A DNA stretch of 64,000 nucleotides from an uncultured Acidobacteriota bacterium (GTDB lineage: Bacteria > Acidobacteriota > Vicinamibacteria > Vicinamibacterales > Fen-181). The position numbers and the translations under genes were made by a program. Position 1 is the stretch's first letter; each line of letters opens with the position of its first letter. The notes beneath the pieces were generated by a model that was given only the letters and a program-made list of their open reading frames with translations, was not told the origin of the DNA and did not search any database. Below are positions 50,544-56,863 of the stretch, piece after piece. The DNA lies in NCBI GenBank assembly GCA_963717945.1, contig CAVQXT010000007.1, forward strand, positions 1,006,808 through 1,070,807, read 5' to 3'.

Positions 50544-51122
50544 TCAAGCCTTCGGCGTTCCGCCACTCGCATTAGCGATCACCATTTCGACCGCTGCGAT
50601 GGCCCGGGCCTGGCGCTCGGGCCACGCGCCACGGATTTCGACGATCGTCGCGCCGGCCGCGGCCAGCGTTTCGCGGAACAGCCCGTGAATCAGCGCGCGG
50701 GCCTCTTCGTCCGGGCGATCGCGCATGAGGCCATCCGCGATCCAGGGGACGTCTGGGTAAAGGAGCAGGTAGAGGTCGCCGGTTCGCGCGCGCGCCGCCT
50801 CGACGATCCAGCCCGGACAATCCCCGTAATAGTGCCGGCTGTAGACGACGGTTGAATGGAGGTCCGTGTCCCGGACGACCACGCCAGGTCCGCCGTCGGC
50901 CGCCGCCAGGTCCGCAGCCTGCTCGCCGGCAAGCTGGCCCCGGGCGATCGGCTCCACGTCCGACGCGTCGAGCTCGGTCCGCTTCAGGTCCACGTACTGC
51001 CGCGCGAACTCCTTCGACCACGGCGCGCCGAACCTCTCGGCCAGCGCCGCGGCCAGCGTGGTCTTTCCGGTGCACTCCGACCCGGTGACGACGATGGTGA
51101 GCGGGCGGCGTGGGGAGGTCAT
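50544..51122 (-). CDS. NadR-C-terminal-like (AAA_28) small-molecule kinase
   Basis: ORF 50544..51149, with ATG 51122 overlapping the pnuC-family stop (ATGA). VVTGSECTGKTTLAAALAERFGAPWSKEFAR. Confidence 0.7.
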   Translation of the reverse strand: MTSPRRPLTIVVTGSECTGKTTLAAALAERFGAPWSKEFARQYVDLKRTELDASDVEPIARGQLAGEQAADLAAADGGPGVVVRDTDLHSTVVYSRHYYGDCPGWIVEAARARTGDLYLLLYPDVPWIADGLMRDRPDEEARALIHGLFRETLAAAGATIVEIRGAWPERQARAIAAVEMVIANASGGTPKA

Positions 51123-51682
51123 GCGGCGTGTCCGAGCGACCGGCGCCACTGGCGCAGGCCCGACACCGCGAGCGCCACGTAGACGGCGTAGAGGAGGGCA
51201 GTCCAGGCCAGGCCCTGCGACAGGTACATCACGACGTAGACGAGGTCAACGACCAGCCAGACCCACCAGTTCTCGATGAGCTTCCTCGTCTGCATCCACT
51301 GCGCCACGAGGCTGAACGACGTCGTGGCCGCGTCGGTGATCGGCAGCGCTTCGTCGGTCTGGCGGGCGAGCCAGGCCGCCAGCGCCGCGGCGCCGACCGC
51401 ACCGACAACGCCCGCCACGACGAGCGTGCGCCGGGTGGCCTTCGACACGCGGAGCGGCCCGACGCCCTGCCCGCCGTTCACCCAGGCGTACCAGCCGTAG
51501 ACGGCCAGGCCGATGTAGACGACCTGCAGGCCCATCGCGCCGTAGAGCCGGGCGCGAAAGAAGACGGCGACAAACAGCGCGACCGACACGATGCCGACCG
51601 GCCAGCACCACACCTTCTCACGCGTCGTCAGCCACACGGCGACGATCCCCGTCGCCACGCCGGCAATCTCGAGTGCGCTCAT
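51119..51682 (-). CDS. PnuC-family vitamin transporter (probably thiamine-type PnuT given the TPP riboswitch)
   Basis: ORF 51119..51682. WLTTREKVWCWPVGIV...QWMQTRKLIENWWVWLVVD. Confidence 0.75.
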   Translation of the reverse strand: MSALEIAGVATGIVAVWLTTREKVWCWPVGIVSVALFVAVFFRARLYGAMGLQVVYIGLAVYGWYAWVNGGQGVGPLRVSKATRRTLVVAGVVGAVGAAALAAWLARQTDEALPITDAATTSFSLVAQWMQTRKLIENWWVWLVVDLVYVVMYLSQGLAWTALLYAVYVALAVSGLRQWRRSLGHAA

Positions 51683-51692
51683 CGTGTCGGGA

Positions 51693-54062
51693 TCAGAATC
51701 TCAGCTCGAGGGCGACATACACGTTCCGCGTCGCCAGGGGGTAATAGTAGCGCGTGCCCTCGAGCGTCAGCATCGACGGGTTGGTCCCCTCGACGAAGTA
51801 CTGGTAGCTGTAGCCGTTCGGGAACATGCGTCGATTGTCGAGCACGTTGTTGACCTGCACGCGCAGCCTCGGGTGCGCCGCCGAGAGCATCCGCAGCGGG
51901 CGCGACAGATCGAGCGACGCGGAGAGGGCGACGTCGGTTAAGGGCGGCGCCGTGAAATAGCTGTTGCCGGTATTGTCGAGGAACGACTGGCCCACGTGCT
52001 TCACGGTGGCGTCGAGCGTGGCGCCGCGCGTCGGCGTGTAGTCGGCGGAGAAGGTGGCCAGCACCGCGGGCGTGTTGTAGGGCGCGACGTCCTGGAAGGT
52101 GCGGCTCGTCGAGCCGGTCCAGTTTCCCGCGGCGTCGTAGACGTCGAAGAACTGCGTCCAGGTCGAGATCCGATTGAGGCTGTACGTCGCGGTGTGCCTG
52201 AGCTGGAGCGAATCGACCGGCCGCCATCTCAGGTCCATCTCGATGCCGGTGCGATAGCTGCGATCGACGTTCTGGTGGAGCGGGAGGCCGATCTCCGAGA
52301 GCTGACCGGTCTGGGCGATTTCGTGGCGGAACGACATCACGTAGCCGTTGACCTGCGCGCTGGCCCGGCGGCCCGTGTATGTCAGCCCGAACTCCCCGTC
52401 GACCACCTGCTCGGGCTGGACGGCCGCCAGGTTGTACACGACGCTGGCGTTGTCCTCGCCCTGCAGCATGTCCGAGCGGCCCGGTTCCCGCCCGGCGCGG
52501 CCGACCGACGCGTAAAAGCTCACGCCGCGGCCCACATCGAGCCGGACGCCGCCCTTCGGATTGAAGAACGTCCAGTGGATCGAGCCGAGGTCGAGCGAGC
52601 CGGCGTAGCGGAAGCGGGCCCATCGCACCTGGACGTCGCCGAGGTAGCTCCACCGCCCCCGCGTCCACGAGAACTTGGCGAAGGTGTTGAATTCCTGCTT
52701 GTAGCCGTGATTGAGGTAGTCGGCCGGCCCGGAGACGACGTCCCGGGTGTGCCGGCTCTCGAACGCGCTGGCGTAGGTGCCCCAGGTGAAGTCGGTGTGC
52801 GCGCCCGCCACGTGCAGCGTCGTGGACACGCCGACGTTGTGCCAGCTCAGGCCGTACTGGAAGAGGCCCGACGGCTCGGCGGCCGCGTCACGGAGGCGGT
52901 ACCAGCCGTCGGCGGCGTTGTAGAACCCCTGGACGGCCAGCTCGGTCCCCGGTTTCAGCGCGCGGTGATACTGCGCCGTCACGAAGCCCTGGGAGAACTC
53001 GTCGCGCTCCTCCGGCGTGAGCGGGTTGGTGCGAAGGTCCACGGCGAGCGCGGCTTCGTCGGCGGCGAGAAAGGCCTCCTGCGTGTGCTCGCGGCCGAAG
53101 AAGCCGAAGATCTTGAAGTAGGAGTCTGACGTGTCACGGCTGGCGCCGAGGTAGATACTCTTCTCGCCGACGCCGGAGTTGTGCTTGAACCCGTCGGAGG
53201 TCTGCGTCGCCGCCTGCGCATACAGCTTGAATCCGTGCGCGAGCTTGCCCGAGTTGAACACGCCGCTCAGGCGCTCGGTGCCGAAACTGCCGGCGCCGGT
53301 CCTGACGACCACCCCGGGCCGGTCGGTGAACGACGCGCTCGCGAAGTTGATCGAGCCGACAAACGACGAGGCGCCGACCGTGGAGGTGCCGACGCCGCGC
53401 TGCACCTGGATGCTGTCCACGGCGTTGGCGAAGTCGCCCAGGTCCGCGAAGTAGAAGGCGGAGTCTTCCGGCTCGGCGATCGGCATGCCGTCGATGGTGA
53501 CGTTCATCCGCGTCTGCGGGATGCCGCGCAGGTAGATGTAGGCGTAACCCGCCGGCGCCCCCGAGTCGGCGTATTGGGTCAGCGACGGGACCTGCTCGAG
53601 CAGGAAGGGGATCTCCTGGCCCCAGTTGCGGGCCTCGATCTCCTCGCGCGGGATGTCGGTCTTCGACACCGGCGCGTCTTCGGGCGCCCGGACCGCCTCG
53701 ACGGTGACGTCCTCGCGGAACCGCGCGAGCGGCGAGAGGACGACGTCCAGCGCCACCGCGGTCGTGCGGACGTCCACGCGCTGGTCGGCATCGACGTACC
53801 CCGCGTGCGAGAGGCGCAGCGTGTAGGACCCGGGCGGCAGATCGAGCTGGCAGCTTCCGTCGGCGCCGGTCTCGACCGACCGGGCCGGGGCCGCCACCGC
53901 AACGACGACGGCGGCGATCGGCGCGCCGGCGGCGGTGCGGACAACGACGCGGACCGGCACCGTGGATTGAGCGTCGAGCACGGCCGCGCCCGGGACGGCC
54001 AGCGCGAACGCGGCCAGGGCGAGCAGCCGGACGATCGATCTTGCGCGTGTGCGTACGTTCAC
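51693..54062 (-). CDS. TonB-dependent receptor with carboxypeptidase-regulatory-like N-domain
   Basis: ORF 51693..54062, GTG start with GAGGAGG upstream. Plug motifs (IYLRGIPQTRMNVTIDGMPI, IQVQRGVGTSTVGASSF) and a terminal ...VALELRF. Confidence 0.85.
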   Translation of the reverse strand: MNVRTRARSIVRLLALAAFALAVPGAAVLDAQSTVPVRVVVRTAAGAPIAAVVVAVAAPARSVETGADGSCQLDLPPGSYTLRLSHAGYVDADQRVDVRTTAVALDVVLSPLARFREDVTVEAVRAPEDAPVSKTDIPREEIEARNWGQEIPFLLEQVPSLTQYADSGAPAGYAYIYLRGIPQTRMNVTIDGMPIAEPEDSAFYFADLGDFANAVDSIQVQRGVGTSTVGASSFVGSINFASASFTDRPGVVVRTGAGSFGTERLSGVFNSGKLAHGFKLYAQAATQTSDGFKHNSGVGEKSIYLGASRDTSDSYFKIFGFFGREHTQEAFLAADEAALAVDLRTNPLTPEERDEFSQGFVTAQYHRALKPGTELAVQGFYNAADGWYRLRDAAAEPSGLFQYGLSWHNVGVSTTLHVAGAHTDFTWGTYASAFESRHTRDVVSGPADYLNHGYKQEFNTFAKFSWTRGRWSYLGDVQVRWARFRYAGSLDLGSIHWTFFNPKGGVRLDVGRGVSFYASVGRAGREPGRSDMLQGEDNASVVYNLAAVQPEQVVDGEFGLTYTGRRASAQVNGYVMSFRHEIAQTGQLSEIGLPLHQNVDRSYRTGIEMDLRWRPVDSLQLRHTATYSLNRISTWTQFFDVYDAAGNWTGSTSRTFQDVAPYNTPAVLATFSADYTPTRGATLDATVKHVGQSFLDNTGNSYFTAPPLTDVALSASLDLSRPLRMLSAAHPRLRVQVNNVLDNRRMFPNGYSYQYFVEGTNPSMLTLEGTRYYYPLATRNVYVALELRF

Positions 54063-54124
54063 GTCCCGCCTCCTCTCGACCGGTCGAACGATCAGACACG
54101 GCGAGCGATGCGGATGCTTTGGGG

Positions 54125-54241
54125 AGTTCTCGAAATCGACGGGGAGCGCCGGCGCTCCCGATCGCCTTCCCTACGCCGGTACTACCCGGTTCAGGTTCGA
54201 GGGTGTGATCTCAGGCCGTAGTCTTTGGCCACCCCTAGGCG
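54125..54241 (-). promoter_or_regulatory. TPP (THI-box) riboswitch plus expression-platform hairpin
   Basis: The minus strand reads CGCCU-AGGGGUGGCC...CCUGAGAUCACACCCUCGAACCUGAACCGGGUAGUACCGGCGUAGGGA-AGGCG (aptamer 54241->54163), then GGGAGCGCC/GGCGCUCCC followed by GUCGAUUUCG. Confidence 0.85.
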
Positions 54242-54288
54242 TCCTGCCAGGCATCAGTGTGGCGCAGGGAGCCGGCAGAGTCAACGGC

Positions 54289-54468
54289 GCCTTACGCCGC
54301 GCCTTACGCCGTACGGCCTTACGCCTTACGGCCGGATTCGCCCACGCGCAGGCCTGAAGGCCTGCGCTATCTGCAGATAGTGCGGGGATCCACAGATAGC
54401 GCAGGGCTTCAGCCCTGCGCAGCAGCGTCAGCGTGAGGCGTGAGGCGTAAGGCGTAAGCCGTAAGCCG
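54289..54468. repeat. Class-II hairpin-pair element with CCTTACGCC-type terminal inverted short repeats (MITE-like)
   Basis: Left end (gccttacgcc)n and right end gtgaggcgtgaggcgtaaggcgtaagccgtaagcc (inverse complement). The core is identical in plan to 36128-36255 and includes the 14-nt palindrome CTATCTGCAGATAG. Confidence 0.85.
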
Positions 54469-54483
54469 CGAGGCGGTGGTACC

Positions 54484-55620
54484 ATGTCCCCCGTGAAGCT
54501 CGACGATCTCCCCACGCCCGCGCTCGTCGTCGACGAAGACCGGATGGCCCGGAACATCGACCGAATGCGACGGCGCCTGTCCGACCTCGGCGTCGGCTTT
54601 CGACCTCACGTCAAGACCGCAAAGAGCATCGAGATCTCCCGCCGACTGATGCCGACGGCGCACGGCCCGATCACCGTGTCGACGCTCAAGGAGGCCGAGC
54701 AGTTCTTCGCCCATGGCGTCACCGACGTGCTGTACGCGGTGGGCATCGAACCGGGGAAACTGACCCACGTTGCTGACCTGAGGGCACGCGGTTGCGACCT
54801 GACGGTGATCCTCGACAGCGTCGAGGCGGCGGCCGACGTCTCGGCGTTCTGCGCCGCAGGGCGGTGCGAGATCCCGGCGTTGGTCGAGATCGATTCGGAC
54901 GGCCACCGTGGCGGCGTGAAGCCCGATTCGGACGGCCTGCTCGGCGTGGCCGCCGCCCTGAAGTCGGGCGCCCGCTGTCGCGGAGTGATGACACACGCCG
55001 GCGCCTCCTACGACTGTCGATCCACCGACGCCATCGCCGCCATGGCCGAGCAGGAGCGCGCCGCCGTCGTGGGCGCGGCCGCGCGGCTTCGGGCCGCGGG
55101 CCACGACGCTCGAATCGTCAGCGTCGGGTCCACGCCGACGGCCACCTTCGCGCGAAACCTCGCCGGCGTCACCGAGGTGCGCGCCGGGGTATTCGTGTTC
55201 CAGGATCTCGTCATGGCGGGCCTCGGCGTCTGCGCGATCGAGGAGATTGCGCTCTCGGTGCTCGTGAGCGTCATCGGGCACCAGCGCGAGAAGGGCTGGA
55301 TCGTCACCGACGGCGGATGGATGGCCGTGTCGCGCGACCGCGGCACGGCGGGGCAGCCGATCGACCAGGGCTACGGCCTCGTGCGCGACGCGGACGGCCG
55401 GCTGCTCGAGTCCCTCGTCATGCACGGCGCCAACCAGGAGCACGGCCTGCTGTCGCGCCGGGACGGCGGCCCGCTCGACTGGGAGGCGTTCCGCATCGGA
55501 CGGCGGCTGCGGATCGTGCCCAACCACGCCTGCGCCACGGCCGCCCAGCACGCCGAGTACTTCGTCGTCAAAGGCTCTCGCGAGGTCGTCGCCCGCTGGG
55601 AGCGGTTCGGAGGATGGTGA
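54484..55620 (+). CDS. PLP-dependent D-threonine aldolase / D-serine dehydratase-like (alanine racemase N-domain family)
   Basis: ORF 54484..55620. LPTPALVVDEDRMARNIDRM...FRPHVKTAKS (PLP Lys) ...RIVPNHACATAAQH. Confidence 0.7.
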   Translation: MSPVKLDDLPTPALVVDEDRMARNIDRMRRRLSDLGVGFRPHVKTAKSIEISRRLMPTAHGPITVSTLKEAEQFFAHGVTDVLYAVGIEPGKLTHVADLRARGCDLTVILDSVEAAADVSAFCAAGRCEIPALVEIDSDGHRGGVKPDSDGLLGVAAALKSGARCRGVMTHAGASYDCRSTDAIAAMAEQERAAVVGAAARLRAAGHDARIVSVGSTPTATFARNLAGVTEVRAGVFVFQDLVMAGLGVCAIEEIALSVLVSVIGHQREKGWIVTDGGWMAVSRDRGTAGQPIDQGYGLVRDADGRLLESLVMHGANQEHGLLSRRDGGPLDWEAFRIGRRLRIVPNHACATAAQHAEYFVVKGSREVVARWERFGGW

Positions 55621-56024: not shown

Positions 56025-56370
56025 ACGCTGGCGCTACACGGCCGGCCAGGAGGCCGGCGCTACCGCCGGAAGTGTGTGGCGCGAGCCTCCTGGCTCGCGC
56101 GGGGCCAGTGCAGCAAGTGCCAGTTCGGCAGCGACCCCGACGCGCAGTTTCTGCCGCCGGTCTGCCGGCGACCCTAGGCCGGCCAGGAGGCCGGCGCTAC
56201 CGCCGGAAGTGTGTGGCGCGAGCCTCCTGGCTCGCGATGGCGGCCGACCAGGAGGCCGGCGCTACCGCCGGAAGTGTGTGGCGCGAGCCTCCTGGCTCGC
56301 GATGGCGGCCGGCCAGGAGGCCGGCGCTACCGCCGGAAGTGTGTGGCGCGAGCCTCCTGGCTCGCGATGG
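56025..56370. repeat. REP (class I) array upstream of RAYT: 4 composite units (inverted hairpin A + direct hairpin B), three at an exact 65-nt period
   Basis: The unit is ggccggccaggaggccggcgctaccgccggaaGTGTGTGGCGCGAGCCTCCTGGCTCGCGatggc. Hairpin B starts at 56072, 56209, 56274 and 56339. Confidence 0.9.
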
Positions 56371-56416
56371 CGGCCGGCATCACGTGACCCGGCATTGAGA
56401 ATGCACCTGGGCGGGC

Positions 56417-56863
56417 ATGGAGCGGTTCTATCGAAGGCGCCTCCCTCATTGGCGCGTCGAGGGGTCGTCGGCCGATTACTTCGTCACCTGGCGGATCGCC
56501 GCGTCGCAGGCCGAACTCTCATCGGCCGAGAGAGATCTCGTCGCAGGGTCCTTGGCCCATTGGGATGCGCGCACATGCCGGCTGTCCGCGTGGGTGGTCA
56601 TGAATGATCACGTCCACGTCGTCGTGGCGCCGGCGGTCGGCGTCCGGCTCGAGACGGTGCTGCACTCCTGGAAGTCCTACACCGCCACGCGAATGGTCCG
56701 AGGACATGGCCGCGCAGGCCCGGTGTGGCAGCGCGAGTCCTATGACCGCGTGATCAGAAACGACGAAGAGCTCCGGCTATTGATCGAATACGTCTGCCAC
56801 AACCCGTGGAAGCGATGGCCCAGCATGGGCGCCTACCGGTGGGTGTGGCCACAGCCGGCCTAG
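56417..56863 (+). CDS. REP-associated tyrosine transposase (RAYT, IS200/IS605 Y1 HUH family)
   Basis: ORF 56417..56863. FYRRRLPHW, HUH motif DHVHVVV, catalytic-Tyr region LIEYVCHNPWK. REP arrays lie on both flanks. Confidence 0.85.
   Translation: MERFYRRRLPHWRVEGSSADYFVTWRIAASQAELSSAERDLVAGSLAHWDARTCRLSAWVVMNDHVHVVVAPAVGVRLETVLHSWKSYTATRMVRGHGRAGPVWQRESYDRVIRNDEELRLLIEYVCHNPWKRWPSMGAYRWVWPQPA

Follow-up and report, generated by a model that had tools for sequence, protein, structure and literature searches.

What does a kinase of the NadR type do behind a thiamine pyrophosphate (TPP) riboswitch? This question is raised by a 64,000-nucleotide stretch of contig CAVQXT010000007.1 from an uncultured bacterium of the Vicinamibacterales (Acidobacteriota), hereafter the window. 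In it, a TPP riboswitch (THI-box) precedes minus-strand genes for a TonB-dependent receptor, a Pnu-family facilitator and a stand-alone AAA_28 P-loop kinase. An initial annotation of the window had proposed thiamine or one of its precursors as the substrate of the kinase. We propose that the three genes form a thiamine-scavenging operon, which is repressed by TPP via the 5′ riboswitch and in which the kinase traps imported thiamine by phosphorylating it, and we place the probability of this reading at roughly 0.58. Comparison with other genomes strengthened the initial proposal through 36 operons, a second context of the kinase gene beside thiBPQ, and a parallel to the OMthi-pnuT-tnr3 operon. 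The proposed function is nevertheless drawn from sequence and genomic context, and two loci discussed below (L157 and L158) keep a nicotinamide riboside alternative alive.

In an Rfam scan of the whole 64-kb window, the aptamer matched RF00059 with a score of 63.1 bits (gathering score, 54.3; E = 4.9e-10), and it was the only Rfam match. The THI-box of the initial annotation is therefore real, and the motifs it had quoted (GGGGTG, CTGAGA, ACCC, GAACCTGA, CCGGCGTAGGGA and the P1 pair CGCCT/AGGCG) were all located in the sequence. Its gene layout was accurate as well, although the span it gave ended at 54241, 5 nt short of the end of the Rfam match at 54246. The ligand-contacting motifs CUGAGA, ACCUGA and GCGUAGGGA, together with helices P1–P5, are all found in the window aptamer, which has no P3a stem. 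These motifs are invariant across alignments of 22–27 homologous aptamers, and aptamers homologous to that of the window reached the gathering score at 47 related loci. A MAFFT alignment set the two TPP aptamer groups out of structural register.

The three genes are tightly packed, with the two junctions that had been described initially. The receptor and Pnu genes are separated by a gap of 10 nt, and the Pnu stop and the kinase start share an ATGA overlap. The terminator scan gave no site between the three genes. Its lone match lay inside the Pnu coding sequence and did not rise above shuffled sequences. No terminator thus cuts the kinase gene off from the operon. The next gene downstream of the kinase is convergent, and thus the unit holds three genes; no fourth conserved gene was found downstream of the kinase in related loci. 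We infer that the three genes are co-transcribed.

The proteins encoded by the first two genes have clear family assignments. The receptor has CarboxypepD_reg and Plug domains and a C-terminus (...ALELRF) that ends in an aromatic residue. The Pfam barrel model stayed below threshold for the window receptor and reached it in orthologues at loci L155 and L157. Receptor orthologues of 40–64% identity are also the first genes after the THI-box in related loci, and by analogy to OMthi this protein is presumed to be a thiamine receptor. The TM6 motif of the Pnu protein, WWVWLVVD, fits the WxxW(x)3D/N motif of Pnu transporters (PMC5749112), and the protein matched the PnuC structure 4QTN at 41 bits. 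It is presumed to be a thiamine channel of the PnuT type.

The third gene does not encode a thiamine pyrophosphokinase, as the initial annotation had noted. Its product has Pfam matches to AAA_28, AAA_18 and AAA_16 only, and in the Pfam search it had no similarity to thiamine pyrophosphokinase (TPK/ThiN/Tnr3) or to ThiK of the PF01636 type. Should it prove to be a thiamine kinase, it would not be an orthologue of these enzymes. The nearest structures are NadR kinase domains. An AF2 model of the kinase (pLDDT 91.4) had as its best Foldseek match the kinase domain of Escherichia coli NadR (8x7f, TM 0.79), followed by NadR of H. influenzae and L. lactis and then by thymidylate kinases. The single kinase sequence scored 25–41 bits against the solved NadR structures, and a profile made from 41 sequences of the family scored 63–76 bits across the whole domain. 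The Walker A motif GSECTGKT, the E..R and DTD motifs, and the lid motif PW.ADG..RDR are invariant in the kinase family. This is why the kinase, judged by its sequence, looks catalytically competent.

The kinase is not a complete NadR. The NCBIfam NadR models matched through their C-terminal kinase part only and the scores were far below the cut-offs (TIGR01526, 87.6 versus 341.15 bits; NF005988, 52.4 versus 201). The nicotinamide mononucleotide adenylyltransferase (NMNAT) domain and the DNA-binding helix-turn-helix (HTH) domain of NadR are absent from the 192-aa protein, and there is no room for another domain since the kinase start overlaps the Pnu stop. Its Walker A motif also departs from that of NadR (GGESSGKS). 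We propose that the protein derives from the ribosylnicotinamide-kinase domain of NadR and now stands alone.

There is an alternative to thiamine trapping. The Pnu protein and the kinase may still be a nicotinamide riboside (NR) system, with a PnuC, an NR kinase and a separate NMN adenylyltransferase that receives the nicotinamide mononucleotide (NMN). The riboswitch would then serve the receptor, and the two downstream genes would be passengers, or co-regulated for no reason related to substrate. The fold and motifs of the kinase match NadR kinase domains, as this alternative expects, and the Pnu protein scored 90.7 bits with the NCBI PnuC model TIGR01528, over its cut-off of 42.45. The likeness to characterized PnuC-NadR salvage (1LW7, 6GYE, 8X7F, 4QTN) extends to a homologous transporter and kinase domain (TM 0.72–0.79) and to the adjacency of the genes for the facilitator and the trapping kinase. 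The window operon differs from that system in having TPP riboswitch control rather than control by NadR, NrtR or an NAD riboswitch, and in including a TonB receptor. We consider the NR alternative unlikely, chiefly due to the conservation and the genomic contexts described next.

The conservation of the arrangement was determined in a survey of one genome per GTDB species, which gave 70 loci, and in a metagenome scan that added another 80. The three operon proteins were located by tblastn, and a regular expression served to find THI-boxes, which were then scored with Rfam; over these two scans, 46 of the 48 regex-positive loci that were tested reached the gathering score. An Rfam-confirmed aptamer lies on the same strand upstream of receptor, Pnu and kinase genes at 36 loci including the window. 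The 35 further loci are from 18 GTDB species and 17 metagenome contigs, and those with names are mostly Acidobacteriota (Thermoanaerobaculia, Holophagales and Marinacidobacterales). At receptor-bearing loci, a regex THI-box was present in every contig that extended well 5′ of the receptor start; among these boxes, two (L032 and L077) were below the Rfam threshold and five are known by the regular expression alone. Within 6 kb of the kinase gene, a TPP riboswitch was found in at least 30 of the 70 species by the Rfam threshold, and in 36 of 70 with regex-only boxes counted. With only one TPP riboswitch in the whole 64-kb window, this frequency is far beyond chance.

The spacing of the genes is conserved along with their order. 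For the 64 loci with all three genes, the median gap between receptor and Pnu genes was 7 nt, and the 4-nt overlap of Pnu stop and kinase start was present in 52. The maintenance of the ATGA overlap and of gaps of 7–10 nt across dozens of species is not what would be expected of passenger genes under the NR alternative. In addition, three proteins (P0139, P0140 and P0253, from L153 and L155) of 357–370 aa are fusions of Pnu and kinase, one of which follows a homologous receptor. We regard these as candidate Rosetta-stone fusions, with the caveat that they may be artefacts of gene calling at the 4-nt overlap.

A lineage in which the receptor has decayed is informative on what the riboswitch serves. 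Three related loci (L001, L076 and L075) have receptor-gene deletions of differing extent and have kept the riboswitch, Pnu and kinase, with the aptamer 481, 226 and 67 nt before Pnu, respectively. At L075, the deletion has brought the leader of the riboswitch up against the final receptor codons, after which it runs straight into the Pnu-kinase pair. As the riboswitch-Pnu-kinase unit outlives the receptor, the riboswitch serves more than the receptor, contrary to the NR alternative. At locus L002, that alternative also has to account for a second enzyme: an NMNAT-kinase paralogue resembling NadR (229–1272) is encoded 1.6 kb from the THI-receptor-Pnu-kinase operon, separated from it by D-serine-dehydratase-like and RidA genes, which also flank the window operon. 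The presence there of a separate, bifunctional NadR-like enzyme indicates that the two kinases are not redundant.

The kinase gene was also found in a context with no Pnu partner. In nine marine gammaproteobacterial species, a kinase 38–49% identical to that of the window is encoded 8–69 nt before a TPP aptamer, which is followed by thiB, thiP and thiQ. The ThiBPQ proteins pass the NCBI cut-offs for thiamine-specific equivalogs, for example ThiB in this arrangement with 379.5 bits (cut-off, 317). It would make little sense for an NR kinase to abut a THI-box and thiBPQ in nine genomes with no channel for NR beside it. The placement before thiBPQ recalls the E. coli salvage system of ThiBPQ with ThiK and ThiL and would fit a ThiK-like role for the kinase, from thiamine to thiamine monophosphate (TMP). 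It differs in that E. coli ThiK is a kinase of the APH fold, unrelated to AAA_28, and is not linked to thiBPQ there. The riboswitch may be internal to the kinase-thiBPQ transcript, gating the transporter genes alone. The tightest spacings between kinase and aptamer (8–20 nt) leave scant room for a promoter.

Riboswitch-linked genes of other arrangements were also observed. Two Gemmatimonas genomes have a Pnu-kinase pair that is transcribed away from a THI-box and receptor, and in a Telluria genome the two units are convergent.

The closest known parallel to the window operon is the thiamine operon of the Bacteroidetes, most genomes of which have OMthi, pnuT and tnr3 in one riboswitch-controlled operon (Costliow and Degnan 2017, PMC5613172). 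In both systems a TPP riboswitch is followed by genes for a TonB receptor, a Pnu facilitator and, in last position, a cytoplasmic kinase, all tightly packed. By analogy, they would share a logic of uptake, metabolic trapping and feedback by TPP. They differ in their hosts (Acidobacteriota and relatives for the window type), in the N-terminal CarboxypepD_reg domain of the window receptor, and in the last gene, which in the window encodes a NadR-fold AAA_28 kinase and not a thiamine pyrophosphokinase. As a consequence of this replacement, the expected product is TMP (as with ThiK) rather than TPP, and ThiL would finish the pathway.

We hypothesize that the operon works as follows. The TonB-dependent receptor would carry thiamine over the outer membrane, and the Pnu protein, a facilitator of the PnuT type, would let it pass the inner membrane by diffusion. 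As facilitators, Pnu proteins need a cytoplasmic kinase to trap the vitamin (PMC5749112). In the window operon this would be the AAA_28 kinase, which, being translationally coupled to Pnu, would phosphorylate thiamine, most likely to TMP. The phosphorylated product would be unable to exit via Pnu and would be converted to TPP by ThiL. Once TPP is abundant, the aptamer would fold and expression of the whole unit would drop.

The substrate might differ from thiamine itself. The operon could salvage a related compound, such as hydroxyethylthiazole (HET), its carboxylated form (cHET), hydroxymethylpyrimidine (HMP) or a degradation product, with the kinase as a functional analogue of ThiM or ThiD. 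TPP riboswitches are known from thiamine regulons to govern precursor transporters as well (transporter table in PMC6593275), the hydroxyethyl group on which a thiamine kinase would act is present in HET too, and thiamine is only the presumed substrate of both the receptor and Pnu. Yet the characterized Pnu proteins that are linked to THI-boxes carry thiamine (PMC5749112), the other context of the kinase is a ThiBPQ transporter above thiamine-specific cut-offs, and the match to OMthi-pnuT-tnr3, a thiamine operon, is gene for gene. For these reasons salvage of a precursor seems to us improbable, about as much so as the NR alternative.

A still less probable possibility, to which we give very little weight, is that the kinase acts later, as a TMP kinase analogous to ThiL, or that it carries out both phosphorylations, given its thymidylate-kinase-like fold. 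Thymidylate kinases, which phosphorylate a monophosphate, are the next structural matches after NadR, and ThiBPQ imports TMP as well as thiamine. The closest relatives of the kinase are, however, nucleoside and not nucleotide kinases. Furthermore, PnuT binds neither TMP nor TPP (PMC5749112), and a Pnu-partnered kinase must therefore act on free thiamine to trap it, as in the thiamine-trapping role that we favor.

Several observations weigh against thiamine trapping and are best considered together. The first is the number of loci without a TPP element. At about 26 of the 70 species loci, which have Pnu-kinase pairs or lone kinases, no TPP element lies inside the surrounding 6 kb. These loci are mostly from Gemmatimonadota and Desulfovibrionaceae and a few from Acidobacteriota, and such riboswitch-free pairs are compatible with NR salvage. 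Five of the Desulfovibrionaceae loci (L050, L056, L059, L060 and L063), at which no riboswitch was detected, have the Pnu-kinase pair amid tRNA gene arrays, in which as many as seven tRNA genes share the same Rfam score. Second, some relatives of the kinase (39–46% identity) carry a fused NMNAT domain and, judging from this domain content, are true NadR-like enzymes; those at L051, L156 and L157 (40–51% identity) are also partnered with Pnu, as NR salvage would have it. Third, the adjacency of kinase and thiBPQ in the Gammaproteobacteria may have arisen from one or few events, and L054 and L069 have the same glutathione peroxidase gene after the kinase but no thiBPQ.

Fourth, no sequence marker separates the pairs linked to thiamine from those presumed to be linked to NR. 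The residue at the end of the Pnu TM6 motif (D in PnuT, N in PnuC) was rejected as a marker of thiamine because the Pnu protein of L156, which is partnered with an NMNAT-kinase, has D, and because sister Halodesulfovibrio genomes differ at this position. The Walker A variants GSECTGK and GxESxGK did not mark clades either: stand-alone ES-type kinases were interspersed in the neighbor-joining (NJ) tree, and L051 is of the EC type with an NMNAT domain. Neither the NJ trees for the kinases nor those for the Pnu proteins split riboswitch-linked from riboswitch-free members, and in the Pnu tree, built with no characterized PnuT reference, the L156 protein falls among the THI-linked Pnu proteins.

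The strongest point on this side comes from L157 (940–6014) and L158, which were added later in our study. An NrtR gene, for a Nudix-type NAD regulator, is followed there by a THI-like element (~1715–1800 in L157) and then by the genes of a TonB receptor, a Pnu protein and a complete NMNAT-kinase. Identities to the window proteins are 40% for the receptor, 52% for Pnu and 40% for the kinase domain. The element keeps the invariant bases of the aptamer and was positive by the regular expression; its Rfam score is below threshold, and it was judged by eye and regex. The order of receptor, Pnu and kinase domain and the THI-like leader are as in the window, and the complete NMNAT domain, the upstream NrtR gene and the sub-threshold leader element are not. 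Regulation of the thiamine type and enzymes of the NAD type can thus share one operon, and at L157 an NrtR gene adjoins the sort of operon that NR salvage predicts. The hybrid suggests either dual control by NAD and TPP or an intermediate between NR and thiamine salvage operons. Outside these two loci, no NrtR gene was found among the ~150 loci, and no NAD riboswitch was reported at any Rfam-scanned locus, both of which count against NR salvage as the general function. On balance, we continue to favor thiamine trapping for the operon of the window.

The leader of the operon provides some indication of how repression might operate (Table 1). Directly 3′ of P1 is a GC-rich hairpin, recognized by sequence reading and folding, that has no U-tract after it in the window leader. 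Nine of ten aligned leaders (L002 is the exception) have a hairpin in the same place, with differing sequences, and it may be a piece of the expression platform. Further downstream, a conserved C-rich box could pair with the GGGG of the aptamer and is a candidate switching element. An RNAalifold analysis of the ten leaders paired columns 12–15 with 126–129, and all of these pairs were G-C or G-U except at two gap positions. Invariant in all ten is a GGAGG Shine-Dalgarno motif, which in the window stands 6 nt ahead of the receptor's GTG codon. The pairing of the C-rich box with the GGGG is convincing, but its pairing with the Shine-Dalgarno is not shared by all relatives. The minimum free energy z-score was only −0.51. 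Overall, the pattern fits an OFF switch acting on initiation of receptor translation, with Pnu and kinase presumably affected via polarity and translational coupling; repression could be by occlusion of the translation start with polarity, or by termination.

Table 1. Coordinates of the operon, its leader elements and the compared loci; positions refer to the window unless a locus is named.
Feature	Position	Strand	Details
AAA_28 P-loop kinase, stand-alone	50544..51122	-	192 aa from ATG; PF13521 123.2 bits
Pnu-family inner-membrane facilitator	51119..51682	-	187 aa; PF04973 189.7 bits
TonB-dependent receptor, first gene	51693..54062	-	789 aa, GTG start; CarboxypepD_reg 2e-10, Plug 2.2e-13
Shine-Dalgarno GGAGG of receptor gene	54069..54073	-	6 nt before GTG start
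C-rich box CUCCCC	54121..54126	-	able to pair with aptamer GGGG; candidate switching element
GC-rich hairpin GGGAGCGCC/GGCGCTCCC	54142..54159	-	directly 3′ of P1; sequence reading and folding
TPP riboswitch aptamer (THI-box)	54151..54246	-	RF00059, full model 1-105
Receptor-gene deletions of differing extent, one lineage	L001 4608-5185; L076 4441-4763; L075 882-1045
Kinase / THI-box / thiBPQ loci	L016, L024, L025, L026, L028, L033, L043, L046, L065		Arenicellales, Acidiferrobacteraceae, others

Repeats were noted in two parts of the window. Region 54285–54465, which lies between the riboswitch and a divergent gene at 54484 and is presumed to hold the operon promoter, has a 33-nt inverted repeat (54346–54378 and 54388–54420, 88% complementary). 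On both sides it is bordered by heptamer arrays (CGTAAGG/CCTTACG) in opposite orientations. Beyond that gene start, four direct repeats of ~65–70 nt, 89–100% identical and each with a palindrome, occupy positions 56040–56376 (plus strand), directly upstream of a 148-aa open reading frame (ORF) at 56417–56863 (plus strand) with a weak match to IS200-like Y1 transposases (24.6 bits). Together these look like a repetitive extragenic palindromic (REP) array with a REP-associated transposase. In related loci, the sole recurrent neighbor downstream of the kinase, seen in one set of related contigs, is an uncharacterized ORF that is transposase-like by eye.

The window kinase is a member of a large family. 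One search for its relatives gave 4,120 clusters at 90% identity, and an exhaustive search of representatives gave 3,425 clusters at E ≤ 1e-3. Of the 4,120, those with names from JGI are mostly labelled NadR or NR kinase, and the Pnu partner is labelled "NMN transporter". The view of the initial annotation that a thiamine-related function is not established for this kinase family agrees with our literature searches, which gave no relevant report of a NadR-like or AAA_28 thiamine kinase. In the existing account of vitamin B1 salvage, the enzymes listed are only ThiK, ThiM and ThiN, and ThiK and thiamine pyrophosphokinase are the only recognized signature enzymes that phosphorylate salvaged thiamine (PMC6593275). 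Freshwater acI Actinobacteria are described as thiamine auxotrophs that are missing nearly all thiamine biosynthesis and salvage enzymes and have a THI-box upstream of "pnuC" (PMC5301498); an AAA_28 kinase is a possible candidate for the missing step in those bacteria.

We hypothesize more broadly that the stand-alone "GSECTGK" AAA_28 proteins are an unrecognized family of thiamine kinases that arose from the NadR kinase domain and changed substrate jointly with Pnu (from PnuC-NadR to PnuT-kinase), and that they provide the phosphorylation of thiamine in Acidobacteriota, some Gemmatimonadota and marine Gammaproteobacteria. For this wider proposal we regard the chances as evenly balanced. If it is true, thousands of entries for "NadR" or "NR kinase" and for their partner "NMN transporter" are misannotated, and the pairs would show cleanly how a transporter can switch substrate together with the enzyme that does the trapping. 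A third, unrelated family of thiamine-phosphorylating enzymes would also alter what is predicted for abundant soil and marine phyla about auxotrophy for vitamin B1 and its exchange.

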